A stretch of 64,000 bases of DNA from an uncultured Acidobacteriota bacterium (GTDB lineage Bacteria; Acidobacteriota; Polarisedimenticolia; Polarisedimenticolales; DASRJG01): contig CAZEII010000012.1 in the NCBI GenBank assembly GCA_964511835.1, forward strand, positions 17,569 to 81,568, in the 5' to 3' direction. Positions 10,452-45,237 of the stretch are shown in pieces (the first letter of the stretch is position 1; every line of letters starts with the position of its first letter). A program made the translations under genes and the position numbers. The notes beneath the pieces were generated by a model that saw only the letters and a list, made by a program, of their open reading frames with translations, was not told the origin of the DNA and made no database searches.

Positions 10452-11920
10452 TTAGGGGGGCGGCGAGGACTGTCGCGGCGATCGTGTTTTCCGCCTGGGC
10501 GACGACCGAAATCGCGATGGCCGATCGCGTTCCCAAGGGGGTGTGCTTCAAGAACGTCGACGACCGACTGGAAATCCTGTTGGCCGTCGATCTCAAACCC
10601 TCCCAGGCCCCGATGAAGCAATTGAAGGATGTCCAAGCACTTGGCCCGCTGTTCCAGTTTCTCGTGCAACATGCCGCGTGGATCGAGCCGAGCATCGCGC
10701 CCGAACGAGCGGTCAAACTTCATCTGCTTCGTAGTTACACCGTCAGATTCAAGCCCGGCGTCCACAAGACGCCTCAGGAATTGCTCGATCTGACACAGGG
10801 ATTGATTCAACTCGGTCCAACGGTGATTGCGCGCGCTGCGCCGGTCCCGAGCGCGCGACCTCCGAGCAACGATCCCTACGTCGGTGCGGGGCGCCCGGTG
10901 ACCTATCCTGCCCAGACTCCTTGCGGGACTCAGTGGTACCTGTTCGACACGGGAGTCGATTTCGCCTGGAATTGCTCAGCGACGGGGGCGTCGGTCGTCG
11001 TCGCCGATGTCGATTGGGGGTTTGACCTGACGCATTCTGAGCTTTCCGGCGCTTGGGACCCGAACCACACCTACGACATGTGCAACGGGGCAAGTGCTCC
11101 CGGGTGGGCCTACCACGGAACCGGGGTCGCCGGATTGATCGCCGCCCGACAAGACGGGAATGGAATTCAAGGGATCGCGTACCAGTCGACGATCTGGCCG
11201 ATCACGGCGTCCTGCTCGACAAACACCTATCTCCCCTGCGAGGCCAAATGGGAGAGTGGGAACCCTTGGGCGGATGCCATTGCGAAGGCTGCCACCGATC
11301 TCTGCGATAGTTGCAGAAAGGTCGTGGTTCTCGAGAACCAGACATGTTGCTACGGCAACTATGAAGCAAGCATTGCGGTCAACACGACGATCACAGCCGC
11401 GATCGCAAAAAAAGTCGTCGTGGTGGTCGCCGCCGGGAACGGTTACAAGGACGCCACGTACGACGATGTCGGTACTCTTATCCCAGAGAGCGGCGCAATC
11501 GTCGTCGGCTCCACCGATTATGTCGACGATTATCGCCTCTCGGCGGACAGCAATTTCGGTGCGCGTATCCTGGTTTCGGCGCCGGGGGACATGGACCACG
11601 ACCTGACTCTTACGACGGGTGGGCGGAAGTGCCTTGGCGAGCCGTCAGGTACGACGTACAGCGAGTGCTTCGGAGGCACCTCCGGCGCGGCCGCCAAGGT
11701 CGCTGGAGTCGTCGCGCTGATGCTCCAAAAGAATACCGGTCTAGATCCAGAAGGCGTGAGAGAAATCCTGAAGCGAGTCGGCAAGCCAGTGACATCCAGT
11801 GACGGAAAACAACCTGGCGGCGTTTTTCTAGACGCCCACTGCGCTGTCGCCGCCGCAGACCCTGTCAGTTGCGGGCCCGTTTGCCCAACCCCCACGCCGA
11901 CGCCGACACCAACCCCTTGA
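10448..11920 (+). CDS. Secreted S8 subtilisin-like serine protease with Pro/Thr-repeat tail
   Basis: Triad motifs VADVDWG, YHGTGVAG, GGTSGAAAKVAG; oxyanion AAGNG; ATGA overlap; ends PTPTPTPTP. Confidence 0.92.
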   Translation: MIRGAARTVAAIVFSAWATTEIAMADRVPKGVCFKNVDDRLEILLAVDLKPSQAPMKQLKDVQALGPLFQFLVQHAAWIEPSIAPERAVKLHLLRSYTVRFKPGVHKTPQELLDLTQGLIQLGPTVIARAAPVPSARPPSNDPYVGAGRPVTYPAQTPCGTQWYLFDTGVDFAWNCSATGASVVVADVDWGFDLTHSELSGAWDPNHTYDMCNGASAPGWAYHGTGVAGLIAARQDGNGIQGIAYQSTIWPITASCSTNTYLPCEAKWESGNPWADAIAKAATDLCDSCRKVVVLENQTCCYGNYEASIAVNTTITAAIAKKVVVVVAAGNGYKDATYDDVGTLIPESGAIVVGSTDYVDDYRLSADSNFGARILVSAPGDMDHDLTLTTGGRKCLGEPSGTTYSECFGGTSGAAAKVAGVVALMLQKNTGLDPEGVREILKRVGKPVTSSDGKQPGGVFLDAHCAVAAADPVSCGPVCPTPTPTPTPTP

Positions 11921-23634: not shown

Positions 23635-25293
23635 GTGATGACGGGCGAGGGCCGATCCACTTGGAGTCCGCTGGCGCACTCTGTGTTCCGAGCCCTCTGG
23701 ATCGCGTCGGCGGCCTCGTACCTCGGCTCCTTCATGGCGGACGTGGCGCAAGGCTGGCTCATGTCGTCGCTCACGCCGTCCCCGCTCATCGTGTCTTTGT
23801 TGCTGACGGCTGAGAGCCTGCCGTTCTTCTTGCTCGGACTCCCCGCGGGCGCACTCGCGGACATCGTCGATCGTCGCAGGCTCTTGGTCGTCACGCAGCT
23901 CGCCATGGCCGTTGCGGTGGGCACCCTTGCGATCGTGACGCTCACGGGGGTCGTGACGCCGTGGATGCTTCTCGTGCTGGCGTTCGCGCTCGGGATCGCA
24001 ACCGCCCTCAACGACCCGGCCTGGTTCGCGATCGTGCCGGAGCTCCTGCCGAGCGACGAGCTCGCGGCGGGCGTCACTCTGAGCGGCGTCGGCGTCAACA
24101 TCGCCCGAGCTCTGGGCCCCGCTCTCGGTGGATTCGTGGTCGCGGCGGCGGGGCCGGGCGCCGTGTTCGTGCTCGACGCCCTGTCGTTTCTCGGAGTCGT
24201 CGCGGTTCTCCTGACGTGGCGGCGAGAGCGATCGATCTCCGTTCTTCCCGCCGAGCGCATTTTCGGCGCCATACGCGCGGGCTTGCGCTTCGCTCGATAC
24301 TCGGACGCGCTGCGCCGTGTGCTCCTCGGAACGTTCCTCTTCATGGTCTGCGGCGGGGGGATCATGGGGCTGATGCCGGTTCTGGGGCGAGAGACCGGGC
24401 ACGGCGCGATCGCTTTCGGACTGCTCCTCGGGTCGCTCGGTCTCGGTGCCGTCACCGGGGCCGCGCTCTTGCCGCGCGTCCGCTCTCGTGTCAGGCCCGA
24501 CGCGCTGATCGCTGCCGGCTCCCTGGTGTTCGCGGGCGTCGCGACGGGCGCCGCGATGTCGCGCGAGCTCGCCATCCTCTGTCCGATCATGCTTCTCGGC
24601 GGCGTCGCCTGGATCTCCGTGCTCTCGACCCTGACCCTCGGGGCCCAACAGGCGAGCCCGCCGTGGGTGCGAGCGCGCGCGCTCGCCGTCTACTTGATCG
24701 TTTTTCAGGCCGGGATCGCCGGAGGAAGCGCGCTGTGGGGCTGGGTCGCGACACGCGGCGGACTGAACGCCGCGTACTTCGGCATCGGTCTCGGGCTGCT
24801 GCTCGGGGCGGCGATGGCCGTACGGCTGAGGGCGGTGGCAGCCGAAGCCGTCGATCACTCCCCCGCACGACATTGGGCCGACCCGGTGGTGACGGGGGAG
24901 CCTTCGCTCGAAGCGGGACCGATCATGGTGCAGGTGGAGTACGGCGTCGATCCAACGTGCGTGGATTCTTTCAGGATCGCCATGGCCGATCTCGGCCGCA
25001 GCCGCCGGCGCGATGGCGCGATTGAATGGTGGCTGTTCCAGGACACGTCGGACGCGTCGCGCTTCGTCGAGACCTGGATCGAGGAGACGTGGGCGGATCA
25101 CCTGCGGAATCACGAGCGCGTTTCGGTCGCGCACAAGGCCCTGGAGCAGAGGGTGTGGGATCTGACACAACGCGGTGCCACGACCACGACCCGGCACTTC
25201 ATCGCGCCGCACGACCGGCGATCGGCAGCCGCAGCCGTGCGCGCCGTCGAAGAGCGGGCCGGTTGCTGGGCCCCGGACGGCACGCTGGAGTAG
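23635..25293 (+). CDS. MFS transporter (MFS_3/DUF894 type) with soluble C-terminal domain
   Basis: About 12 TMs, GALADIVDRRRLL motif A, tail RRRDGAIEWWLFQD..FVETW..WADHLRNHER. Confidence 0.9.
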   Translation: MMTGEGRSTWSPLAHSVFRALWIASAASYLGSFMADVAQGWLMSSLTPSPLIVSLLLTAESLPFFLLGLPAGALADIVDRRRLLVVTQLAMAVAVGTLAIVTLTGVVTPWMLLVLAFALGIATALNDPAWFAIVPELLPSDELAAGVTLSGVGVNIARALGPALGGFVVAAAGPGAVFVLDALSFLGVVAVLLTWRRERSISVLPAERIFGAIRAGLRFARYSDALRRVLLGTFLFMVCGGGIMGLMPVLGRETGHGAIAFGLLLGSLGLGAVTGAALLPRVRSRVRPDALIAAGSLVFAGVATGAAMSRELAILCPIMLLGGVAWISVLSTLTLGAQQASPPWVRARALAVYLIVFQAGIAGGSALWGWVATRGGLNAAYFGIGLGLLLGAAMAVRLRAVAAEAVDHSPARHWADPVVTGEPSLEAGPIMVQVEYGVDPTCVDSFRIAMADLGRSRRRDGAIEWWLFQDTSDASRFVETWIEETWADHLRNHERVSVAHKALEQRVWDLTQRGATTTTRHFIAPHDRRSAAAAVRAVEERAGCWAPDGTLE

Positions 25294-25371
25294 GGGTCCG
25301 GGGCGAGTCGGCCGTCCGGCACGAAACTTTGTATGATGCCCGTGGTTTCCAATCAGGCACGGGTTAGCACG

Positions 25372-26604
25372 ATGCACGACCTCGAATCGATCTCGGCCGA
25401 ACCGAGCGCCGCCCGGGCGCGCATGGAGCGCGCGCGCGGGCTGTCCGATCGACTGTTCGCGCAGGTGCGTCCCGAGGCCTGGCTCGACCGCCCCATCCCC
25501 GAACGCAATCGTCTTATCTTCTATCTCGGCCACCTCGAGGCGTTCGACTGGAACCTGATCGGGAGCGCCGTCACGGGACGGGCCGTCGACGAAGCACTCG
25601 ATCCGCTGTTCGCGTTCGGAATCGATCCTCCCCCGGGGGAGCTGCCGCAGGACGAGCCAAGCGATTGGCCCTCGCCGACTCAGGTGCGCGACTACGTGCG
25701 CTCCGCTCGGGCCCGCCTGGACGGAATCCTCGAGCACGCGGCCGACGCGGCGACCGACATGGCGGTCGAGCACCGCCTCATGCACGTCGAGACCCTGACC
25801 TACCTGCTGCACGCGCTCCCTTATGAACGGCGCATCGTGGCGCCCGTCCGACCGGCTCCCCAGCGCCGCGTGCCCGAGCGATCGCGGGTCGAGATCCCCG
25901 CGGGGACCGCGACTCTGGGGATGACGCGCGGCGCGAGATTCGGCTGGGACAACGAATTCGATGAGCACCAAGTCTGGGTCGAGCCGTTCGCCGTCGACGC
26001 GCACAAGGTCACCAACGCGCGCTACCTCGAGTTCGTCGAGCGCGGCGGCGGGGAGCCTTCCCCGTTCTGGATGCGCGACAAGGACGAGTGGCGCTGGCGC
26101 GGGTTCGACGCCTCGGTCCCGCTGCCTCTCGATCATCCGGTGTACGCGACCTGGGAACAGGCCGACGCGTTTGCCCGGTGGGCGGGCGGTACGCTTCCGA
26201 CCGAAGCGCAGTTCCACCGCTACGCCTACGGCACGCCGGCGGGGCGCGAGCGCGCTTTTCCTTGGGGTGGCGCGCCGCTCTCGCGCGAGCGCGGTAACTT
26301 CGACTTCGTCGAGCGCGACACGGTCGCGGTCGGCGCAGACGGTGCGGGCAACAGCGCGTTCGGCGTCGCGCAGGCGGTGGGGAACGGATGGGAGTGGACG
26401 CGGACGCCGTTCGCGCCGTTCCCGGGGTTTGCGTCGGACCCTTCGTACCCCGGCTACTCCGCGAGTTTCTTCGACGCGCGGCACTTCGTTCTGAAGGGCG
26501 CGTCGTGCGCGACCGGTCGCGCGCTCGTTCGGCGCTCGTTCCGCAACTGGTTCCGCCCGCACTATCGCCACGCGTACACCACCTTCCGCGTGGTCGAGGG
26601 TTGA
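25372..26604 (+). CDS. DinB + FGE-sulfatase non-heme iron sulfoxide synthase (EgtB/OvoA family)
   Basis: RNRLIFYLGHLEAFD, EHRLMHVET, PTEAQF, GNGWEWT, FVLKGASCAT, SFRNWF; alternative start 25333. Confidence 0.88.
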   Translation: MHDLESISAEPSAARARMERARGLSDRLFAQVRPEAWLDRPIPERNRLIFYLGHLEAFDWNLIGSAVTGRAVDEALDPLFAFGIDPPPGELPQDEPSDWPSPTQVRDYVRSARARLDGILEHAADAATDMAVEHRLMHVETLTYLLHALPYERRIVAPVRPAPQRRVPERSRVEIPAGTATLGMTRGARFGWDNEFDEHQVWVEPFAVDAHKVTNARYLEFVERGGGEPSPFWMRDKDEWRWRGFDASVPLPLDHPVYATWEQADAFARWAGGTLPTEAQFHRYAYGTPAGRERAFPWGGAPLSRERGNFDFVERDTVAVGADGAGNSAFGVAQAVGNGWEWTRTPFAPFPGFASDPSYPGYSASFFDARHFVLKGASCATGRALVRRSFRNWFRPHYRHAYTTFRVVEG

Positions 26605-26605
26605 G

Positions 26606-27637
26606 GTGCGTGCGCCTCGTCCCGAAACGATCCTTCGCGCCGTGCGGCCGCCGCGCGCGAGCGTGGTGCCGCGCGAGGCGACGCTGGATTTCGCCGCCGA
26701 CGTGCGCTCGGGGCTCGGCCGCGCGCAAAAGTCGCTCCCATCGAAGTACCTCTACGACCCCCTGGGAGCGGCGCTTTTCGATGCGATCACGGAGCTACCG
26801 GAGTACGGTCTGACGCGGGCCGAGGAGCGCATCCTCGGCCGGCACGCGCACGACATCGCCCGTCGGCTTCCGCACGGCGTCGCGGTCGCGGAGCTCGGGG
26901 CCGGGAGCGGGCGCAAGACGATCCCCGTGCTCCATGCGATCCTCGCGTGCCAGCCGGGGGTCTCGTACACGACGATCGACGTCTCGGCCGCCGCGCAAGA
27001 GCGCTGTGCCCGCGAAATCGGCGGGCGGCCAGGGGTCCGCTTCCGCGCCATCGAGGCCCCGTATCTCGAGGGCCTCGCGCGCTTCGACGTCCTCCGTCCG
27101 CAGCGCGCTCCCCTGCTCGTGATCTTCCTCGGCAGCTCGATCGGCAACTTCGACGCCCGCGAGCAGCATGCGTTCCTGGCGGGCGTGCGCGCGCTCTTGA
27201 GTCCGGGGGACATGTGCTTCATCGGATTCGATCTCGTGAAGCCCGTCGCGCGTGTTCTGGCCGCCTATGACGATTCCCTCGGAGTCACGGCGGCCTTCAA
27301 TCTCAACCTATTGTCGCGGATCAACCGCGAGCTCTCGGCCGACTTCGATCTCGGCGCCTTCCGTCACGAAGCGCGATGGTTCGAGCCCGAGAAACGGATC
27401 GAGATGCACCTGCGCGCGCTGCGCGCCCAGACGGTGCACGTTCCCGGTGCCGGGTGCCGCGTCAGCCTCGCCGAAGGCGAGACGATCTGGACCGAGTCCT
27501 CCCACAAGTTCGAGCCGGCGCAACTCCCTGAGCTTGCCGCGTCCGCCGGATTCGTGGAGGCCGCCCGCTGGGTCGACGAGACGTGGCCCTTCGCGGACTC
27601 GCTCTGGCTCGCCGGACGCCCCGACGGTCGAGCGTGA
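26606..27637 (+). CDS. egtD: L-histidine N-alpha-trimethyltransferase
   Basis: KSLPSKYLYD, PEYGLTRAE, ELGAGSGRKT, FLGSSIGNF, YDDSLGVTAAFNLNLL, IWTESSHKF. Confidence 0.95.
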   Translation: MRAPRPETILRAVRPPRASVVPREATLDFAADVRSGLGRAQKSLPSKYLYDPLGAALFDAITELPEYGLTRAEERILGRHAHDIARRLPHGVAVAELGAGSGRKTIPVLHAILACQPGVSYTTIDVSAAAQERCAREIGGRPGVRFRAIEAPYLEGLARFDVLRPQRAPLLVIFLGSSIGNFDAREQHAFLAGVRALLSPGDMCFIGFDLVKPVARVLAAYDDSLGVTAAFNLNLLSRINRELSADFDLGAFRHEARWFEPEKRIEMHLRALRAQTVHVPGAGCRVSLAEGETIWTESSHKFEPAQLPELAASAGFVEAARWVDETWPFADSLWLAGRPDGRA

Positions 27638-27653
27638 GAAAGGGAGAACGGCG

Positions 27654-27923
27654 ATGTCCGAACGAACCTGCGCCCACATCGAAGCGATCGCCGAGCCCCT
27701 CCACCCGAAGCGCCGCGAGTGCGAGGAGTGCGTCAAGATCGGGGCACGCTGGGTCCACCTGCGGACCTGCCAGGACTGCGGGGGAACGCGCTGCTGCGAC
27801 GACTCCCCCAACCGGCACGCCAGCAAGCACGCGCACACGAGCGGCCACGCCGTGATCGCTTCGGCTGAGCCCGGAGAGCGCTGGCTCTACTGCTATCCCG
27901 ACGATGCTTTTGCCGAGTACTGA
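27654..27923 (+). CDS. UBP-type zinc finger protein
   Basis: CAH, CEEC, WVHLRTCQDCGGTRCCDDSPNRHASKH, WLYCYPD. Confidence 0.92.
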   Translation: MSERTCAHIEAIAEPLHPKRRECEECVKIGARWVHLRTCQDCGGTRCCDDSPNRHASKHAHTSGHAVIASAEPGERWLYCYPDDAFAEY

Positions 27924-27947
27924 AAGTTGCAGGCGAAGGAGGCGAGC

Positions 27948-29579
27948 ATGAGCGGATCGACGACCGACGTTGCCTTCCCCACGCTGAGCGAGCAGGAGCT
28001 GAGCTGCGCAGCCACGATCGGCGCACCGCGCCGCTTCCACGACGGGGAGGTGCTCATCGCACTCGGCGCTCGAGATTACCCGATGTTCGTCGTGCGCTCG
28101 GGGTCGATTGCGATTCTCGCGAGCCGTTCCGGCGAGCCCCAGGAGGTCGTCGTCCACGGGCCTGGAAAGTTCACCGGCGATGTGGACTTGCTGACCCGCC
28201 GCCCCTCGCTGACCTCGGCCGTCGCACGAGGAGATTGCGAGGTCCTCGAGGTCGAGGCGGCGCGCATCCGCCAGCTCTTGAACGAGGTTCCCGACCTGAG
28301 CAACAAGCTGCTGGAAGCCTTCCAAGCGCGGCGCGAGCTGCTCGAGCGCGGCGATTTGATCGGAATCCGCGTGCTCGGCGAGAGCGATTCCAGGGAGACC
28401 CTGGAGCTGCGCGAGTTCTGCTACAAGAACAAAGTCCCGCACACGTTCCTCGACATCGAAGAAGACCGCGGCCGCGCCGCGCTCGACGAGCTGGGCCTCA
28501 GCTCCGCGGATGCCCCGATCATCGCGTGCAGCAAGCACGTCGTCTCGCGCCCGTCGCTGATCCGGTTCGCGGAAGCTCTGGGCATCTCGCGCGAGATCCC
28601 GGACGAGCTCTACGACGCCGTCATCGTCGGCGCCGGACCCGCCGGCCTGGCGGCTGCGGTCTACGCCGGCTCGGAGGGGCTCAAGACCTTGCTGCTCGAC
28701 CGCGTGGGGCCGGGCGGCCAGACCGGGCAGAGCTCCAAGATCGAGAACTACTTGGGGTTTCCGGCGGGGCTCTCCGGCGCCGAGCTCGGAAATCGAGGCT
28801 ACCTACAGGCACTCAAGTTCGGGGTCGAGTTCCGCGCGCCGGTCTCCGTGCTCGGGATCGAGCGTCGGGAGTCGGGCGTTCAAGGCCTCGACTTGTGCAG
28901 CGGCCAGACCGTGCGCTCGCGCACGGTCCTGATCGCCACGGGCGCCTCCTACCGACGGCTCCCGGTCCCGGATTGCGGGCGGTTCGAGGGCGCCGGGCTC
29001 TACTACGCGGCGACCTCGGTCGAGGCGCGGGCGTGCCGCGGAGCGACTGCGATCGTCGTCGGCGGCGGCAACTCTGCCGGCCAGGCCGCGATGTATCTCT
29101 CGCGACAGGCCGCGCAGGTGAAGCTTGTGCTGCGCGGCGACGACCTCGCGAAGAGCATGTCCCACTACCTCTGCCGCCGCATCGAGCTGACGCCCAACGT
29201 CGAAGTTCTACGCAATACCCTGGTGGTTGCGATGCACGGCGCGCGGCACCTGTCGGAGGTCGAGCTGCACGACACCGTCACCGGCGAAAGGCGGCGCCTC
29301 GAGTGCGCCGGGCTCTTCAGCTTCGTCGGCGCGCGCCCCCACACCGAGTGGCTCGACGAGAGCTTCCTGCGGGACGAGCACGGCTTCGTGCAGACGGGCA
29401 GGGCCGTCGCCGCGGACGCTCGCTGGGACGCAGGGCGCGAGCCGTGCGAGCTCGAGACCTCGCGGCCGGGGGTGTTCGCGGCCGGCGACGTGCGCAGTGG
29501 GACGACCAAGCGCTGCGCCTTCGCGGTCGGGGACGGCGCTCTCGGGGTGACCTGCATCCACTGGTACCTGGCGCACTAG
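27948..29579 (+). CDS. cNMP-binding domain + thioredoxin-reductase-like FAD oxidoreductase
   Basis: N-terminal cNMP (FVVRSG..GKFTGD), VGAGPAGL, SSKIENYLGFP, VGGGNSAGQAA, GVFAAGDVRSG. Confidence 0.9.
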   Translation: MSGSTTDVAFPTLSEQELSCAATIGAPRRFHDGEVLIALGARDYPMFVVRSGSIAILASRSGEPQEVVVHGPGKFTGDVDLLTRRPSLTSAVARGDCEVLEVEAARIRQLLNEVPDLSNKLLEAFQARRELLERGDLIGIRVLGESDSRETLELREFCYKNKVPHTFLDIEEDRGRAALDELGLSSADAPIIACSKHVVSRPSLIRFAEALGISREIPDELYDAVIVGAGPAGLAAAVYAGSEGLKTLLLDRVGPGGQTGQSSKIENYLGFPAGLSGAELGNRGYLQALKFGVEFRAPVSVLGIERRESGVQGLDLCSGQTVRSRTVLIATGASYRRLPVPDCGRFEGAGLYYAATSVEARACRGATAIVVGGGNSAGQAAMYLSRQAAQVKLVLRGDDLAKSMSHYLCRRIELTPNVEVLRNTLVVAMHGARHLSEVELHDTVTGERRRLECAGLFSFVGARPHTEWLDESFLRDEHGFVQTGRAVAADARWDAGREPCELETSRPGVFAAGDVRSGTTKRCAFAVGDGALGVTCIHWYLAH

Positions 29580-30314: not shown

Positions 30315-30911
30315 TCAGTCCTGCTCCGCGAGCTCCTGAGCTCGTGTCTTCCCGTACGGATAGAAACCGGCCTTGTCGCCCTTTTCCCAGGCTGCTCGCT
30401 GCTCCGCGCTGCCGATGTCCCAATCGGGGCGGCAGCGCGACAGCATGGCGCGGAGGTCGAGGCGAAGCTCCTCGACCGTCGGTCGGCCGAAGAACCAGTA
30501 CCCGTTGTAGACCCTGTGGATGCGCAGCCCGGGCTCGAGCACCAGCGTGTGCGGGATCATCGGATTGTGCTGTGGGTCGGTGTACTCCGCGATGTCGAGG
30601 TCCTTTTGTACCTTGCGCCCGGGGTCCGCGAGGAACGTCCAGGGTGCGCCGACGCCGTTGCGGAACTCGTTCGTCTCCACCAGGTTGTCGGTCGAAAGAG
30701 TCACGAGCCGGCAGTAGCCGACCTGCATCTCGCGATAGAGCTGCAAAAGCCCTTCGTGTTGTCTCCGGTCCTTCGGACAGTAGCCCCCGCGGGCGAGCAC
30801 CAGCACCAGCGGATCGCGTTCCTGCAGCTCCGAAAGTTTGCGATGCCTGCCTCGGTGGTCGGATAGCTCGTAGTCCGGAAAGACCGCGCCGGGAACGATG
30901 TCGGCCCTCAA
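30315..30911 (-). CDS. Peroxiredoxin-like redoxin (AhpC/TSA fold)
   Basis: PGAVFPDYELSDH, LARGGYCPKD, TLSTD, FLADP, PHTLVL; TTG start overlaps the upstream stop. Confidence 0.85.
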   Translation of the reverse strand: MRADIVPGAVFPDYELSDHRGRHRKLSELQERDPLVLVLARGGYCPKDRRQHEGLLQLYREMQVGYCRLVTLSTDNLVETNEFRNGVGAPWTFLADPGRKVQKDLDIAEYTDPQHNPMIPHTLVLEPGLRIHRVYNGYWFFGRPTVEELRLDLRAMLSRCRPDWDIGSAEQRAAWEKGDKAGFYPYGKTRAQELAEQD

Positions 30912-31096
30912 CGCCGGTCCCCTTCGATATGACGCGTGGCATCCTTCACGGCCTCGTCGGGACTTCTGCCGCCGTCGCGCGCGAGGACGTAGGCGGCGTA
31001 CCACCCGGACCAGTGGTGCTTCGGGGCGGTCGGTTCGTATTGGCCGTGATGGATCTCCGCCTCTCGCAGCAGCTCCGTCAGAGTCGCCAGGTTCAT
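30908..31096 (-). CDS. Small protein resembling the C-terminal helical extension of some glyoxalases
   Basis: LLREAEIHHGQYE...HWSGWYAAYV; GGACG RBS-like site; TTGA coupling to the downstream gene. Confidence 0.7.
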   Translation of the reverse strand: MNLATLTELLREAEIHHGQYEPTAPKHHWSGWYAAYVLARDGGRSPDEAVKDATRHIEGDRR

Positions 31097-31122
31097 GGCT
31101 CGTCCCCCGTCCGCCGGTTCGC

Positions 31123-31560
31123 TCACACGCGTCCGGGGAGCCGCGTCTTGATTTCCTGGAGCAACCAGCCGTTGCCGTCCGGATCTTTGAACGTAGCGAG
31201 CGTACTGTAGGAGCGACCCTCCGGATCGGGGCCCGGTACCGGTGATCCTCCGAAGCCGGTGAAATGGAACGTGTCGCTCACGTCGGCGCCGCGGCGTTTG
31301 AGATCGGCACGCGCCGCCTCGATGTCGTTCACCACGAGGTACAGGTTCTGGACCGAGCCCGGCGCCGCCGCCGTGACTCGCTTCCCGAAGTGAATGGAGC
31401 ATGACGAACCGGGAGGCGTGAACTGGATCACCCGAAAATCGTTCTCTCCTGGGAAGTCGGCGTCCAGCCGCCACCCCAGCCCCTCGTAGAAGCGTTTGGC
31501 ACGATCGACATCGGACACGGGAATCACGACGACCTCGAGCTTCATTTCGACTTTGCTCAT
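31123..31560 (-). CDS. VOC/glyoxalase family protein
   Basis: LEVVVIPVSDVDRAKRFY, QFTPPGSSCSIHFG, FKDPDGNGWLLQE. Confidence 0.93.
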   Translation of the reverse strand: MSKVEMKLEVVVIPVSDVDRAKRFYEGLGWRLDADFPGENDFRVIQFTPPGSSCSIHFGKRVTAAAPGSVQNLYLVVNDIEAARADLKRRGADVSDTFHFTGFGGSPVPGPDPEGRSYSTLATFKDPDGNGWLLQEIKTRLPGRV

Positions 31561-32951
31561 CGCGGCCTCCGTGGGTGGCTGGCGAGCTCCTCTAGGCTTG
31601 CCCCCAGCACCCGGTTGAAAGCTGGGAAAGGGTGGATGACGTCGGCGAGCGTCGTGAGCGGCGTGCCCAGCTTGATCGCCAGGACGAGCTCGCCCAGGAT
31701 CTCACCCGCCCGCGGGGTGACCAGCGTCGCTCCGATCAGCACCCCGCGCTCGCGGTCGGCGACCAGCTTGAGCGCGCCGCCGTGAAAGTCGTGGATGTAC
31801 CCTCGCGCGGTCTCGGCCGGATCGGCGCCGGCGACGACGACGTCGATGCCTCGCGAGCGCGCGGCAGCCTCGGACAGGCCGACGGATGCGATTTCGGGAT
31901 CGGTGAACGTCACGCGAGGGACCGCCGAGTGATCGGCCGTCGCATCCTCGCCTCGCAGCCGGCGCGCCACGACCTGTCCGTGGTAGTAGGCGAGGTGGGT
32001 GAAGCCGCCGAGCCCGGTGACGTCGCCTGCTCCGAAGATGCCGGGCTGCGCCTCGAGCGTCGCGGGGTTCACCTTCAGCCAGCCGCGCTCCGTTTGTGCG
32101 ATCCCGAGTCCGCCCCAAGCCTCGACGTTGGCGTGGCGGCCCGTGGCCACGAGCAGCCGGTCGGCCGAGACCACGGCTCCCGACTTCAGATGAGCGGCAA
32201 CCGCGGAGCGCCTAGGCGAAGCCTCCACGGATCGGTTCTCGACGGCGACGCACGGGTCGCCGATGATCAGCGTGATGCCATCCGCTTCGAGGTGCGGCCG
32301 GAGCGCGGCTCCGGCTTCCGGCTCCTCGAGGCCGAGGAACTTCGATCCGGCTTCGATCACCGTGACCTTGGAGCCGAGGCGGGCGAATGCCTGACCCAGC
32401 TCGACGCCGATGGCGCCGCCGCCGAGTATGGCGAGCGACGCCGGCAGCTCCCTCGGAATCGCCGCCTGGCGGTTGGTCCAGAACTCGACGGTATCCAGGC
32501 CCGGGATCGCCGGAATCACGGCGGTGCTGCCGTTCGCGATCACCACGGCGCGGCGGGCTGTGAGTCGCTCGCCTGCGACCTCGATGGTGCGCAGGTCCGT
32601 CAGCTTGCCTTCGCCTCGAAAGAGCTTGGCGCCGGTCGCCACCATGGCGGCGGCAGGCCGGCTGTCGTCCAGGTCGCGGGCCATCCATAGCACGCGCTTC
32701 GCGACCTTGGGAAAATCGACGGTCCATTCCACGCGCGAGGCGGCGACGCGACGGGCACGATCGGCCTCGGTCAACGTCTCCCCCGAGCGAAGCAAGGTCT
32801 TGGACGGGACGCAGCCCCAGTACGGGCATTCCCCGCCGACGAGATCTCGCTCGACGACCGCCAGGGTCAGGCCGCTGTCCTGAAGGCCGACCGCGATCGC
32901 TTCTCCGGCGACACCACCGCCGAGACAGACGACGTCGAACTCCTGGGCCAA
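31557..32951 (-). CDS. Class I pyridine nucleotide-disulfide oxidoreductase (DLDH/MerA-like, no MerA C-terminal CC)
   Basis: GGECPYWGCVPSK, ILGGGAIG, GAGDVTG, PRVTFTDPE, IHPFP; TTG start. Confidence 0.9.
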   Translation of the reverse strand: MAQEFDVVCLGGGVAGEAIAVGLQDSGLTLAVVERDLVGGECPYWGCVPSKTLLRSGETLTEADRARRVAASRVEWTVDFPKVAKRVLWMARDLDDSRPAAAMVATGAKLFRGEGKLTDLRTIEVAGERLTARRAVVIANGSTAVIPAIPGLDTVEFWTNRQAAIPRELPASLAILGGGAIGVELGQAFARLGSKVTVIEAGSKFLGLEEPEAGAALRPHLEADGITLIIGDPCVAVENRSVEASPRRSAVAAHLKSGAVVSADRLLVATGRHANVEAWGGLGIAQTERGWLKVNPATLEAQPGIFGAGDVTGLGGFTHLAYYHGQVVARRLRGEDATADHSAVPRVTFTDPEIASVGLSEAAARSRGIDVVVAGADPAETARGYIHDFHGGALKLVADRERGVLIGATLVTPRAGEILGELVLAIKLGTPLTTLADVIHPFPAFNRVLGASLEELASHPRRPR

Positions 32952-33135: not shown

Positions 33136-34077
33136 TCAAGCCTCACCGCTGCGCTCCACCGGATGCCCCGCGGCGGCCCAAGCATCGAGGCCTCCGGCGA
33201 GAGGCCGGACTCTCGTGAACCCCCTGGCGATGAGCAGGCGTGCCGCACGGGCCGCCGAGGCTTCGTTGGGTCACGTGCAATACAGGACGATCTCGCGCTC
33301 GAAGGAGACGCCCTCGAGCTCCGCGTCGAGCGGGTCCAGACTGAGGAGCCGCGAGCCCGGAATCGCCCGTCCGTCACGGAGACGTGCCGCCTCCGAGCGA
33401 ACGTCGAAGACTCCGGGCGGGTCGTCCGTCGCCAGTCGTGCTGCGAGCTCGTCGGGAGCGATCCTTCTCATCGCGAAGGCGCGCGTGAACCGTAGGCGCT
33501 CCCAGATGCGCCAGGCGACGTAGAGAACGAGCATGGCGAGCACGACCGTCGCCGCGCCCTTACCCATCGATTCCAGCACCGCGAGCGCGTCCTCGATCTG
33601 CCTCGACAGAAGGGCCCCCGCCAGCATCGCGCTCGCGGACCATAGAAGGGCGCCGATCGCGTCGAACAGGAGGAACGTCCGAACCCGCATGCCCGATGCC
33701 CCCGCCAGCGACGTCGAGACGGCGGACAGCCCCGGGACGAACTTCGCGATGAGGAGCGCGCGCGCGCCGAACCGCGTGAAGAGCGACTCCGTCTGCCTGA
33801 CGCACGCGTCGGGCGAGAGGGAGACCTTGCAAACGAGGCGAAGCGCCACGTCCCCATGCCGGCGTCCGACCGCAAACCAGATGGCGTCCGCGCCGACCGC
33901 CGCCAGCATGGCGACGAGCGCGGTGAGTCCCGCCGGCATCCCGCCGTCGCGGGCGACGGCGCCGGCGACGACGAGCGTCGGGACGGCCGGAATCGGCAGC
34001 CCCAGCTGGTCGACGAAGACGTTCAGGGCGACGAACGAAACCCCGTGGGCGGCGATGAGCTGGACCGGAGTGCGCAT
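33136..34077 (-). CDS. DedA/VTT-rhodanese fusion, putative selenoprotein (in-frame TGA at 33271-33273)
   Basis: DedA motifs (GLPIPA, AKFVPGLS, FLLFDAIGALLW). The rhodanese domain continues past TGA: IVLYCT*PNEASAARAARLLIARGFTRVRPLAGGLDAW; next stop at 33136-33138. Confidence 0.85.
33237..33256 (-). promoter_or_regulatory. Candidate bacterial SECIS hairpin
   Basis: mRNA GGCG-GCC[CGUGC]GGC-A-CGCC: 7 GC pairs and one bulge; loop 21 nt after UGA with G at loop position 2. Confidence 0.6.
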
Positions 34078-34157
34078 CTTTCTCCTCCCGCGAGTCGGGC
34101 GACGATTGTGTCACGGCATCCGGGAGAGTTTGGGGTAACCTCAAGCAGGGCACGAAC

Positions 34158-34463
34158 GTGACTTGGATCCGCGTCTTGGACGATCGAGAGCTTCCGGAAG
34201 GGAGCATGACGCCGGTGTATCCCCTCGGAATCCACCTTGTTCTCGCCCGTGTGGGCGGTGCCGTCTTTGCCGTAGCGGGGAAGTGCGCTCACATGGCGTG
34301 TCCCCTGTCCGGGGGGACCCTCGATGGCTACATCCTCAAGTGTGGCTGCCACGACTGGCGGTTCGATGTCAGGACGGGGCGGTTCGTCGACGCTCCGGAG
34401 CTGGGCATTGCGGTCTACCCGACCAAGTCCGAGTCGGGGAACCTCTACGTCGGCATGGGATGA
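34158..34463 (+). CDS. Rieske (2Fe-2S) ferredoxin
   Basis: CAH...CGCH ligand motifs, FDVRTG. Confidence 0.92.
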   Translation: MTWIRVLDDRELPEGSMTPVYPLGIHLVLARVGGAVFAVAGKCAHMACPLSGGTLDGYILKCGCHDWRFDVRTGRFVDAPELGIAVYPTKSESGNLYVGMG

Positions 34464-34475
34464 CTGGAGATCATC

Positions 34476-34721
34476 ATGAAGAAGGTATCGATGTACACGC
34501 TTTCCACCTGTCCTTGGTGCCGAAAGGCGAAGAATTACTTCAAAGAGCACAACGTCCCGTTCGAGTTCATCGACTACGACTTGGCCGACCAGGCCACGCA
34601 GGACCGGATCATGCGAGAGCTCGACAAAGAGGGAGTCAGCGGCTTTCCGTACGTGCGCATCGGAGAGACCGGCGTCGAGGGGTACCAGCCGGCACGTTAT
34701 GCCGAGCTCCTCGGCCTCTAG
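34476..34721 (+). CDS. Glutaredoxin/NrdH-like protein
   Basis: YTLSTCPWC, FIDYD, GFPYVRIG. Confidence 0.93.
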   Translation: MKKVSMYTLSTCPWCRKAKNYFKEHNVPFEFIDYDLADQATQDRIMRELDKEGVSGFPYVRIGETGVEGYQPARYAELLGL

Positions 34722-34730
34722 AGAAGAGCG

Positions 34731-35066
34731 ATGGACGCTGAATCGAGAAAACGGGCGCTGCGGCAGTTCTACGGGAAGGTCGTCAAGCCTCTGGGGTTCA
34801 AGTTCACTCCGGACTCCGATCTCTCCGAATTCCTCCTCGATCAAGAGGTCAAGCTCGAAGAGAAGCATGGTGTGCCGTTTTGTCCGTGCCGGCCCATCCG
34901 TCGGGACAGAGCCCGCGACATGCAGATCGTCTGCCCCAGCATCCCCTTTCACCGCGCGCACTTCGATGCCATGAAGCGATGCTGGTGCGGGCTTTTCGTC
35001 CACGAGGACGTCACCGACCCGGACAGCCTGCCGCAGGTGCCTGCGAAGGAGCTGGGCATTGAGTGA
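34731..35066 (+). CDS. Ferredoxin-thioredoxin reductase catalytic-subunit-like protein (atypical CPS motif)
   Basis: HGVPFCPCRP...VCPSIPF...RCWCGLFV. Confidence 0.85.
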   Translation: MDAESRKRALRQFYGKVVKPLGFKFTPDSDLSEFLLDQEVKLEEKHGVPFCPCRPIRRDRARDMQIVCPSIPFHRAHFDAMKRCWCGLFVHEDVTDPDSLPQVPAKELGIE

Positions 35067-35469
35067 CGAGTTCGTCCGCGGCATCCGCGCCGACGAGGTC
35101 GCTCCGGGAGGCATGAAGGCGATCGAGCTCAATGGCCGCGAGATCGTGGTGTGCAACGTCGACGGAACGTACTACGCGATCGATCGGCGCTGCGGACACA
35201 TGAGCGCGCCGCTCGAAAAGGGGACTCTGGACGGGACCATCGTCACGTGCGCCTTTCACAGCGCCCAGTTCGACGTCGCGACGGGCGAGGTGCTGGGACC
35301 TCCGGTCATGCCGTACGTGGACGAAGTGCCGCCGCCGCGGATCGCCGCGCTCCTGCAGACTTCGGGGGCGCTGATGCAGCACATCCGGACGGGTCCGATC
35401 GGTACGTACGAGGTCAAGGTCGACTCGGAGTGGGTGCTCGTGGCGCTCGAGCGGCGGAAAGATCGATGA
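35059..35469 (+). CDS. Rieske (2Fe-2S) ferredoxin with C-terminal insertion
   Basis: RRCGHM...TCAFH, FDVATG; TTG start overlaps the FTR stop. Confidence 0.88.
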   Translation: MSDEFVRGIRADEVAPGGMKAIELNGREIVVCNVDGTYYAIDRRCGHMSAPLEKGTLDGTIVTCAFHSAQFDVATGEVLGPPVMPYVDEVPPPRIAALLQTSGALMQHIRTGPIGTYEVKVDSEWVLVALERRKDR

Positions 35470-35591
35470 CGGAACCGTCTCGCTGGCTTGACGACGGCGA
35501 AGGGCGGTCCTAGACTCGATTCACCGCGCGAGGCATGTTGCCCGCGCGCTCGACCCGCCGGGCGCGATGGCCCTGGCGAGAGGAGGCTTCG

Positions 35592-36083
35592 ATGATCCCC
35601 AGAGTTCATCCCGCCGTTATCGTCTGGAATCGACAGGGCGAAGCGTGCCGCGCGAGCCATGCCGGCTGCGGCCCGGCCGCCTACGAAAGTGGCGCGAGCT
35701 GGTCGTGCTCGCCGGCCGATGCCGAGGATTTCGGCGCCGGCGGAGGTTTCGGCGTCCGGCGCCCGCTGCGCTTCCTGGCGTTCAAGCTGCAGCTCGACGA
35801 GGCGCAGCGCGCGAAGCTCGCTCATATCCTGAGCGAGCTGAAGACCGAGCGCGCGCAGGCGGCCGTCGACGACCGTCGGACGCTGGCGGCGTTCGCGGAC
35901 GCGATCTCGGCCGAATCGTTCGACGCCACGAAGGCCGGCTCCGGAGCGGCCCTTAGAAGCAAGAGCGCGGAGAAACTGGCGGGGTCCGTCGCCGCGGCGC
36001 TCGAGCGGATTCATGCGCTCTTGACGCCCGAGCAGCGCGAGCGTTTCGCCTACTTGATCCGCGCGGGGCAGATCGTTCTGTGA
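35592..36083 (+). CDS. Spy/CpxP-like helical protein
   Basis: AGGAGG RBS; KLQLDEAQRAKL and HALLTPEQRERF (LTxxQ motifs). Confidence 0.75.
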   Translation: MIPRVHPAVIVWNRQGEACRASHAGCGPAAYESGASWSCSPADAEDFGAGGGFGVRRPLRFLAFKLQLDEAQRAKLAHILSELKTERAQAAVDDRRTLAAFADAISAESFDATKAGSGAALRSKSAEKLAGSVAAALERIHALLTPEQRERFAYLIRAGQIVL

Positions 36084-37015
36084 GCTTGGCTCCCATGCCG
36101 TCGTCCGATGCCGAGCTTCTCGACGCGTACTCGACGTCGGTCGTCGCCGTCGCGGAGGCGGTCAGTCCGGTCGTCGTGAAGATCGACGCGCGAGGCGCGT
36201 CGGGCTCCGGATTGATCGTCGCCGCAGACGGGTTCGTCGTGACGAACGATCACGTCGTCGAGCGCGCGAACAAGCTCGAGATTACGCTCGCCGACGGTCG
36301 GACGGCATCCGGGGCCGTCGTGGGCCGCGACCCCGACACGGATCTCGCCGTTCTGCGCGTCGAGGGGGATGAGCTGGCCGCAGCGAAGCTCGGGGACTCC
36401 GCAGCTCTAAGAGTCGGACAGCTCGTCGTCGCCATCGGCAATCCTTACGGATTCCGGTGCACGGTGACGGCTGGAGTCGTCAGCGCCTTGGGCCGGTCGC
36501 TCCGCGCGCGCTCGGGGCGGCTCATCGACGACGTGATCCAGACCGACGCCGCTTTGAACGCCGGGAGCTCGGGCGGCCCGCTCGTCAACTCCCGCGGCGA
36601 GGTCGTCGGCGTCAACACCGCGATGATCCTGCCGGCGCACGGGCTCTGCTTCGCGATCGCGATCAACACGGCGAAGTGGGTGATCGGGAGGCTCCTCCGA
36701 GACGGTCGCGTGCGCCGGAGCTACCTGGGGATCGCGGGGCAGAACACCTCGCTCGACCGGCGAGTCGCTCGGCTTCACGGCCTGGAGGGAGAGACCGGAG
36801 TTTCGGTGCTGTCGACGGAACCGGGTGGACCCGCACAGAAAGCCGGTCTGCGCGAGGGGGACGTCGTGGTCCGGATCGACGGACACCGGGTCCGCGGGAT
36901 GGATGACCTTCAGCGCCTGCTGACCGACGAGGCTCCGTCAGCGTCGAGGACGATCACCGTGATCCGCGGCGTCGAGATCCTCGAACGTTCCGTCCATTCC
37001 GCCGTGCGGGGGTGA
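36080..37015 (+). CDS. S1C (HtrA/DegS-like) serine protease with PDZ domain
   Basis: VVTNDHVV, DTDLAVLRV, IQTDAALNAGSSGGPL, GPAQKAGLREGDVV. Confidence 0.93.
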   Translation: MSLAPMPSSDAELLDAYSTSVVAVAEAVSPVVVKIDARGASGSGLIVAADGFVVTNDHVVERANKLEITLADGRTASGAVVGRDPDTDLAVLRVEGDELAAAKLGDSAALRVGQLVVAIGNPYGFRCTVTAGVVSALGRSLRARSGRLIDDVIQTDAALNAGSSGGPLVNSRGEVVGVNTAMILPAHGLCFAIAINTAKWVIGRLLRDGRVRRSYLGIAGQNTSLDRRVARLHGLEGETGVSVLSTEPGGPAQKAGLREGDVVVRIDGHRVRGMDDLQRLLTDEAPSASRTITVIRGVEILERSVHSAVRG

Positions 37016-44625: not shown

Positions 44626-45237
44626 TCAGGTTCGAGTGAATCGTGTATACCAGAACTCTTGCGTCTTACCGGCGGGGGTCACGTGGGGCTCCGTTACCGC
44701 TTCGTCGAGGTGAAAGCGCGGGCCGAGCTCCCGCGCCAATGTTTCGGGAGAGTAGCGCGCCACCGGCAGGTCGCTGCACACCGGCGGTCCCTCGAGAGCG
44801 AACGTCGCGATGATCAGCGAGCCGCCGGGACGAAGAGCTTCGTTCAAGCGCGCTCGATAGCGGTCACGTTCCGTCGCGTCGGTCAAGAAATGAAACACGG
44901 CGCGATCGTGCCAGACATCGACGGCGGGTACGGGCCACTCCGCCGTGACGTCCGCCTCGATCCAGCTCACGAGGGAGGCCCGGGCACCAAGCCGCTCCTT
45001 GGCCCGTGCCAGGGCGATCGGCGAGATGTCGAGCACGCTGACGCACGTCAGCCCACGTTCGATGAGGTGATCGACGAGACGAGAATCCCCGCCCCCGACG
45101 TCGATCACTCACGTCGCCGGTGACAACCCGGCGTTGGCGAGCAACCGGGCCGAGACCGTCGGCGCAGCCTGGTACCAGCTCACCGCGTCCGCGGCCTTCG
45201 ACTTGTAGACCGCCTCCCAGTGCGACTTGTCGCTCAT
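44626..45237 (-). CDS. Class I SAM-dependent methyltransferase with in-frame TGA at codon 43 (selenoprotein candidate or nonsense pseudogene)
   Basis: MSDKSHWEAVY...VSWYQ...SPAT*VIDVGGGDSRLVD...DVWHDRAVFHFL; ATG overlaps the sortase stop (ATGA); TGA at 45109-45111. Confidence 0.8.
45067..45108 (-). promoter_or_regulatory. Candidate SECIS-like hairpin directly 3' of UGA
   Basis: 10-bp perfect lower stem GUGAUCGACG/CGUCGAUCAC, 5' bulge UCGG, 7-bp upper stem with G-U pairs, GAUU loop 21 nt from UGA. Confidence 0.45.

Follow-up and report, generated by a model that had tools for sequence, protein, structure and literature searches.

Rhodanese-type selenoproteins have been known since 2005 (PMC1088965), and a 2026 review (PMC13188914), which covers 119 selenoprotein families and subfamilies, distinguishes five rhodanese forms, including 'form 3' with a C-x-U motif (NF041203, rhodanese_LYCAU), where U is selenocysteine (Sec), and TsoB. 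The gene considered here belongs to their surroundings. It lies at positions 33136-34077, on the reverse strand, of a stretch of 64,000 nucleotides from a contig of an uncultured Acidobacteriota bacterium (the window), and would encode a rhodanese domain fused behind a DedA/VTT membrane domain. The reading frame is interrupted at codon 269 by a UGA (UGA269), which comparison with relatives indicates is very likely recoded; Sec is the likely residue at this position, which would make the gene a selenoprotein gene.

Rhodanese and DedA proteins related to the window gene

The best match of the window protein among the NCBIfam models is NF041203 (residues 200-309 aligned with positions 17-125 of a profile of 126). 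Both have a single rhodanese domain with C-x-U at the active-site loop after L-Y, the window protein reading LYCTU; NF041203 was also predicted bioinformatically, and it too has Cys-form homologues. The score remains below the cut-off of that model (60.4 bits vs 115), and no NCBIfam model reaches its own cut-off with the window protein. Moreover, NF041203 stands for a stand-alone protein of about 126 residues, whereas the rhodanese domain of the window comes C-terminal to some 200 residues of a fused DedA/VTT domain with a CX8C motif. TsoB (NF045694) is likewise a rhodanese selenoprotein joined to a further module, in this case one named after the membrane protein DsbD. It differs in its UxxxxU motif, where Sec occurs twice, in its profile of 572 positions and in its membrane domain; the window protein, with C-x-U and a single proposed Sec, scores 18.6 bits with the TsoB model (cut-off 805).

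The fold of the rhodanese domain is common to GlpE (1gmx) and YgaP (5hbo) of E. coli, which use Cys. The active-site loop of GlpE is cationic (C-Y-H-G-N-S), whereas that of the window family (U-P-N-E-A-S) includes an acidic residue, is devoid of Arg and is accompanied by a second Cys at position -2. The distance from the catalytic residue to the GG[LF][DE]AW motif, 25 residues in the window protein, is presumably the same in GlpE. YgaP is also membrane-tethered, with the rhodanese domain first, followed by two transmembrane helices, and without a DedA domain; its domain order is therefore the reverse of that of the DedA-rhodanese fusion.

The N-terminal domain passes the Pfam cut-off of the DedA/VTT family (PF09335), to which DedA/YqjA of E. 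coli, the undecaprenyl-phosphate transporter UptA and the DedA of Ralstonia/Cupriavidus metallidurans belong, and the window protein differs from other DedA proteins in the additional CX8C motif and in the C-terminal rhodanese domain. The cut-offs of the corresponding NCBIfam models for DedA (NF008102) and UptA (NF052605 and NF052604) are not reached (46.2, 44.1 and 35.6 bits vs cut-offs of 236, 300 and 250, respectively). Finally, a selenoprotein form also exists in the YeeE/YedE thiosulfate-transporter family (PMC13188914), which moves a sulfur oxyanion through the membrane and gives a precedent for selenium chemistry at a chalcogen transporter; its fold is unrelated, its motif is GUxSG and its Sec is located in the transporter itself, not in a fused soluble domain.

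The terms DedA, VTT, SNARE and PF09335 do not occur in PMC13188914, and the DedA fusion is not among its families. A literature search, in which one large groundwater survey of metagenome-assembled genomes (MAGs) cited in that review was not covered, found no paper joining a selenoprotein with DedA plus rhodanese or with 'VTT domain', and the papers naming DedA together with selenoprotein or selenocysteine are irrelevant to judge by their titles and abstracts. A preliminary description of the locus, made from its sequence, had noted it as not known to be a described selenoprotein family. This stands for the DedA-fused, membrane-anchored layout, which is absent from the table of 119 families and appears to be previously uncatalogued, but not for the chemistry, as C-x-U Sec rhodaneses had already been described (NF041203, form 3).

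The UGA column and the downstream hairpin

The open reading frame at 33271-34077 starts with ATG (34077-34075), 4-6 nt downstream of a Shine-Dalgarno-like sequence (GGGAGGAG, 34082-34089) which may serve in initiation, and runs for 268 codons to ...EREIVLYCT, where the Cys267 codon TGC (33277-33279) and an ACG codon (33276-33274) precede the TGA at 33273-33271; these features, like all the others of this gene, are on the reverse strand. The same frame continues past the TGA for 44 codons (PNEASAARAARLLIARGFTRVRPLAGGLDAWAAAGHPVERSGEA) to the true stop, a TGA at 33138-33136, so that 313 sense codons including UGA269 would be read. The preliminary description had interpreted this arrangement as a DedA/VTT-rhodanese fusion, and both its coordinates and its domains are borne out. 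Translation reproduces the former and, with Cys substituted for the in-frame stop, both Pfam domains exceed their gathering cut-offs: VTT/DedA (PF09335, residues 29-155, 33613-33993) with 53.2 bits vs 33.9, and rhodanese (PF00581, residues 208-303, 33169-33456) with 44.4 bits vs 22.2. The rhodanese match spans the UGA and is full-length (profile positions 2-102 of 102); the annotated stop interrupts the domain at about position 61 of 102, just ahead of the catalytic residue. The read-through product would comprise about 312-313 residues, with a predicted polytopic DedA/VTT membrane domain as its N-terminal two-thirds, and the same layout is found in relatives.

In a protein search covering 5.8 billion sequences, the 268-residue product of the window itself came first, and after it about 15 relatives with identities of 56-74%, 265-271 residues long and every one ending in [IV][IV]LYCT, while the full-length relatives (313-330 residues, 47-54% identity) read YC[TASN]CP[NS]E. 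On the contigs of three of the truncated relatives, the codon concerned is TGA and is followed in frame by P[NSD]EASAAR...RPLAGGLDAW, with the end of the frame 39-41 codons on. Independent assemblies share the same TGA, which contradicts a sequencing error.

Whether relatives carry TGA or Cys at this column, with conserved sequence downstream, had been raised in the preliminary description, and is answered by a scan of one genome per GTDB species, seeded on two motifs of the DedA domain and unbiased for the sequence after the TGA column. The scan yielded 80 loci, 76 of them classifiable at the UGA column: 24 have TGA (UGA forms, the proposed Sec forms) and 52 have TGC or TGT (Cys forms). All 24 UGA forms keep an intact frame downstream, with no frameshifts or stops seen, and all 52 Cys forms read YCxCPNE, as had been stated for Cys-type fusions. 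A DNA pattern for the UGA form (YC-x-TGA-P-x-E-A ... P-L-x-G-G) matched at least 120 further stretches in JGI metagenomes. With the TGA at the same column in so many loci, it is not a private nonsense mutation of the window. The UGA forms belong to Thermoanaerobaculia and other Acidobacteriota MAGs, one Rokuibacteriota MAG and one MAG labelled Betaproteobacteria, and the Cys forms mainly to Burkholderiales, together with Thermithiobacillus and one Acidobacteriota MAG. The hosts of Cys forms include culturable Burkholderiales as well as Rhodanobacter and Dyella (Xanthomonadales or related), in which knock-outs are practical.

An exhaustive phmmer search against 1.84 billion representatives clustered at 50% identity gave 352 relatives of the window protein at E <= 1e-30. 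Among the best 150 of these cluster representatives, at least 38, with identities to the window protein down to 32%, stop exactly at the C-x before the UGA column, and all 37 truncated representatives that were fetched end in C-x. Pairwise identity among the 28 UGA forms compared goes down to 44%. A rough neighbour-joining tree implies at least five switches between Sec and Cys; the Cys form of Thermithiobacillus tepidarius (L060) is placed among UGA forms of the type of locus L051, and its hairpin has decayed.

In NCBI, JGI, ENA and Logan alike, each copy of the UGA form that was seen has been entered as a truncated protein with about 268 residues and carries the name 'VTT domain-containing protein' or 'membrane protein DedA', just as had been foreseen for standard pipelines. 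The UGA form is common in soil Acidobacteriota and, being very likely recoded, would be systematically mis-annotated; a family model would correct many gene calls in this phylum. For the selenoproteome, it would add a DedA-fused, membrane-anchored rhodanese, which could also serve to mark abundant soil lineages as users of selenium. The significance of the case lies in a widespread, correctable annotation gap and in a handle on DedA biology, rather than in a new principle.

The sequence downstream of the UGA behaves as coding sequence. For codons +1 to +38 of the 28 distinct UGA forms, the ratio of nonsynonymous to synonymous substitution rates (dN/dS) is 0.19-0.21, with dS near saturation at about 1.1; G+17, V+21, R+22, P+23, L+24, G+26 and G+27 are invariant while the third positions of their codons vary freely. 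This pattern indicates that purifying selection persists past the UGA.

A hairpin proposed as a SECIS (selenocysteine insertion sequence) element is located at 33237-33256. Its stem is formed by 33256-33250 with 33244-33237, including a one-base bulge at 33241, and its loop is CGUGC (33249-33245); in the conserved core, 33255-33250 pairs with 33244-33242 and 33240-33238, the outer G-C pair 33256/33237 being an extra found in the window only. The hairpin begins 15 nt after the UGA, the distance from UGA to loop is 21 nt and the second loop base is G, so that folding reproduces the position, spacing and loop base given in the preliminary description. Bacterial SECIS elements have in common a small apical loop which contains a guanosine and lies shortly after the UGA (PMC1088965). 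The function of the hairpin as a SECIS, also suggested in that description, is supported by conservation but not by stability, which alone is no better than that of shuffled sequences. Stability was therefore rejected as evidence, and the significance of the hairpin comes only from comparison with relatives.

This comparison was made with 141 distinct 48-mers of the UGA form, from genomes and metagenomes, and with the 52 Cys forms. The hairpin is placed at nt 19-36 after the UGA, with a 5-nt loop. All six stem positions are paired in 126 of the 141 UGA forms vs 2 of the 52 Cys forms, and five or more in 140/141. All 141 have G as their second loop base, in loops which otherwise vary (CGUGU, CGGGU, CGUGC, AGUGU, AGGAU and others). 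Three registers of the stem can be distinguished, which differ in their codons and even in the amino acids encoded: AGCGCC-loop-GGCGCU (S-A-R-V-A-L, n=100), GCGGCC-loop-GGC(N)CGC (A-A-R-V-A-R, n=32, the window among them) and GCCGCC-loop-GGCG(C)GC (n=9). Compensatory changes were found at pair C24-G30 (to G-C in 6 sequences) and at pair C21-G33 (to U-A in 4 and to G-C in 1), and G-U intermediates are also present. RNAalifold recovers the hairpin from 103 sequences of the first register.

Synonymous sites point in the same direction. In the UGA forms, the third positions of codons +6 to +11 (GCG GCC CGU GUG GCN CGC) are almost frozen, with the exception of bulge codon +10, the most variable codon of the gene. 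When 73 conserved four-fold codons are ranked by third-position entropy, the stem codons take ranks 1, 2, 4 and 7 from the lowest and the bulge codon comes 73rd, whereas the ranks of these codons in the Cys forms are 36-48 of 56. Correspondingly, dS is 0.15 within the hairpin codons vs 1.12 outside. The case for the hairpin is based on the set of 141 sequences together with these synonymous-site statistics; covariation in the 28 genome-derived sequences was set aside as too thin to serve as main evidence.

The likeness to SECIS elements of the fdhF type consists in the small apical loop with a G just downstream of the UGA. The element of E. coli fdhF itself has G23/U24 and a bulged U. The DedA-rhodanese hairpin differs in being short (6 bp, with or without a bulge on the 3' side) and in having no conserved lower stem that includes the UGA. 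A TGC form in an Acidobacteriota MAG (L016; CAVULG010000003.1, about 10793-10860), located inside the Sec clade, keeps the complete hairpin (GCCGCCCGTGTGGCGCGC) and looks like a recent switch from Sec to Cys with a fossil SECIS. Together with the three registers, it provides a clean natural data set on the variation of a minimal bacterial SECIS.

Decoding of UGA269

In phmmer alignments, the U column, that is, the second Cys of C-x-C, coincides with the catalytic Cys of 6mxv_A (Y-C-GSGFRS) and 3iwh_A (V-C-AGGVRS). Sec269 is thereby predicted to occupy the position of the rhodanese catalytic Cys, with Cys267 at -2 (C-T-U-P-N-E-A-S); the proteobacterial orthologues have Cys at the position of Sec269 (C-x-C-P-N-E). 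Cys267 does not vary among the UGA forms, and over the family as a whole its conservation is at least 90%.

The Sec reading is supported because deeply diverged relatives keep TGA at one and the same column, with Cys there elsewhere; because purifying selection continues past the UGA; because the hairpin is specific to the UGA forms and shows compensatory changes and frozen synonymous sites; and because U aligns with the catalytic Cys of rhodaneses. These are the grounds on which the YCT-U-PNE Sec rhodanese fused to DedA/VTT, with a SECIS just downstream, can be upheld as it had been proposed. A global reassignment of UGA is ruled out, since UGA ends 33 of the 55 genes called in the window from G+C content at third codon positions (GC3), the DedA-rhodanese gene included.

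Several results weigh against Sec decoding or its supposed signal. As regards the machinery, the sequences searched yielded no selA, selB, selC or selD: ARAGORN found no tRNA within the 64-kb window and, over 1.46 Mb of window and loci, ARAGORN and a tblastn search with an E. coli SelD sequence detected no tRNA-Sec and no SelD; Rfam at gathering thresholds gave no match in the window, and Pfam identified no sel gene among about 40 of its proteins. As regards the hairpin, the window copy folds with -16 kcal/mol and z = -0.40, 62 of 200 shuffles folding as well (67% G+C). In the 28 genome-derived sequences taken alone, covariation is thin: four of the six pairs are invariant, and the one compensatory pair is matched by 15 of 500 shuffles. 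Further, with the mixed-register set of the same 28 sequences, RNAalifold prefers a weak alternative (-4.95 kcal/mol, no covariation), which is broken by locus L051. A last weak point concerns the six-codon windows of lowest synonymous variation in the whole gene, which in the UGA forms sit just 5' of the UGA (GAG ATC GTC CTC TAC TGC; codons -7 to -2, 33277-33294), a pattern absent from the Cys forms. No conserved pairing partner or extended lower SECIS stem was found for these codons, and their low variation may come from biased use of two-fold codons or from an influence of the sequence context on recoding.

If UGA269 is read as Sec, a SelB-type elongation factor carrying Sec-tRNA(Sec) would bind the hairpin and insert the residue. 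Sec269 could then take up sulfane sulfur, or a chalcogen species related to it, in an Se-S(e) adduct, which Cys267 would resolve through a selenenyl-sulfide. Tethered to the membrane, the rhodanese domain would be a sulfurtransferase or reductase with the cargo or signal of the DedA domain, whatever this may be, as its substrate, and the CX8C pair of the DedA domain may serve as a relay. Where the UGA is read as a stop, for instance when selenium is limiting, the product would be a DedA protein with a dead partial rhodanese.

The comparative evidence gathered here supports recoding rather than the identity of the inserted residue, and another amino acid has to be considered. UGA269 might be recoded with the help of the hairpin to Cys or another standard amino acid, by a tRNA(Sec)-like tRNA(Cys) or an opal-suppressor allo-tRNA: tRNA(Cys) of the selC* type mimic tRNA(Sec) and may suppress opal codons (Mukai et al., PMC5389517), and allo-tRNAs, possible nonsense suppressors, occur in Acidobacteria (PMC5389517). 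However, the selC* tRNAs have been reported in Firmicutes, Thermodesulfobacteria, Nitrospirae and Proteobacteria, not in Acidobacteria (PMC5389517), and a UGA with a SECIS just for Cys would offer no obvious advantage, as TGC suffices and is what the proteobacterial orthologues use. The loop G and the spacing from UGA to loop, moreover, match SelB-type SECIS elements, and insertion of a standard amino acid is considered improbable.

Insertion of Sec competes with termination in bacteria, and the gene layout permits a stable membrane domain either way. Two products might accordingly be set by the selenium supply, mostly truncated DedA, with a role of its own, and some full-length enzyme. Nothing points to a function of the truncated form, the Cys orthologues make the full-length protein only, and such a scheme, unlikely in itself, would refine the Sec explanation rather than replace it. 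It is very improbable that the TGA, even though all pipelines call it as a stop and it is one base away from TGC/TGT, truly ends a 268-residue DedA protein with a vestigial half-rhodanese, the 44 codons being a decaying remnant or the TGA an error, since a remnant would gather frameshifts or stops, of which the genome loci have none, and since TGA and downstream frame are kept in at least 141 distinct sequences, from genes down to 44% identical, with dN/dS of about 0.2 and an invariant RPLxGG, and in independent assemblies.

Membrane domain, gene neighbourhood and a second candidate

The CX8C motif of the DedA domain (VCKVSLSPDAC; 33802-33831) is formed by Cys83 and Cys92, each at least 90% conserved in UGA and Cys forms alike, and is present in 57 of 65 full-length Sec forms of type A and in 43 of 44 of types B and C. 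An AlphaFold2 model, made of a Cys homologue (P0017) and not of the window protein, is confident, with a pLDDT (predicted local distance difference test) of 89.8 and a predicted template-modelling score (pTM) of 0.82. It consists of nine helices over residues 2-200, where pLDDT is mostly above 90, followed by an alpha/beta domain, and only the latter matches solved structures (GlpE 1gmx, the rhodanese domain of YgaP 5hbo, Sud 1qxn and CoADR-RHD). The Arg-rich linker after the last helix (WERLRFTRAFAMRR) suggests, by the positive-inside rule, that the rhodanese domain is cytoplasmic.

The biochemical function of the fusion can be proposed with low confidence. DedA proteins are poorly understood, and a catalytic Sec/Cys rhodanese together with the CX8C motif points to sulfur or selenium redox chemistry. 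According to a review (PMC11422209), mutants of R. metallidurans suggest that DedA takes part in the transport of selenite, which is a lead only for this family, and the 2026 review notes that prokaryotes have no known high-affinity system specific to the uptake of selenium. As a doubtful suggestion, the DedA domain might move selenite, thiosulfate or a related species, which the tethered C-x-U/C rhodanese, possibly via the CX8C pair, would trap and reduce at the cytoplasmic face. Were this true, a selenoprotein would stand where selenium or sulfur enters assimilation, and the large fused DedA subfamily would gain a concrete substrate class.

The gene context bears on this functional proposal unfavourably, as no conserved gene neighbours were found across the DedA-rhodanese family. 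The recurrent neighbours pyrG, tatAC, kdsA, kdsC and kdsD-like were rejected as a functional clue because they reflect synteny within one acidobacterial subclade, and a scan for promoters and terminators around the gene gave nothing useful.

Genes of thiol-redox and stress functions adjoin it in the window, in an arrangement that relatives do not conserve: on one side (30315-32951, reverse strand) an AhpC/TSA-like protein, a glyoxalase and a pyridine-nucleotide disulfide oxidoreductase, and on the divergent side (34158-37015, forward strand) Rieske, glutaredoxin, ferredoxin-thioredoxin-reductase beta-like, a further Rieske, LTXXQ and HtrA-type protease genes. A further group (23635-29579, forward strand) comprises an MFS_3 transporter followed by EgtB-like (DinB_2 + FGE-sulfatase) and EgtD-like (Methyltransf_33) genes, which look like an ergothioneine-type biosynthesis pair; after the EgtD-like gene comes a cyclic-nucleotide (cNMP)-binding domain fused with a thioredoxin-reductase-like flavoprotein.

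A second UGA-for-Cys candidate is located in the same window. It is a class I S-adenosylmethionine (SAM) methyltransferase of 203 codons (44626-45237, reverse strand), with an in-frame TGA (45111-45109) just before motif I (VIDVGGGDS). The corresponding column is Cys in 36 of 41 homologues, some of which carry an N-terminal glutaredoxin domain. A long hairpin (45113-45060) starts at the UGA, with -28.2 kcal/mol, z = -2.36 and 21 nt from UGA to apical loop. The truncation is common to just one relative (P0122, 160 aa, 98% identical), and a TGC-to-TGA nonsense mutation is possible, so that the gene is given as a candidate second selenoprotein. The use of Sec is documented in Acidobacteria (PMC1794560; PMC12013277) and, together with this candidate, lends indirect support to Sec decoding in the window.

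Two minor observations concern other segments. At locus L005 (1-9990), the nuo operon upstream of the UGA-form gene is split into short calls (Complex1_49kDa, 182 aa; Complex1_51K, 179 aa), which suggests frameshift errors in the assembly rather than biology. In the window, the segment 5722-13227 (forward strand) has a lower G+C content (0.63 vs about 0.68) and contains a TPR/CHAT protein of 1270 residues, an unassigned open reading frame, an S8 subtilase and an M48/TPR peptidase; a similar set of CHAT, M48 and S8 genes adjoins the UGA-form gene of locus L001.

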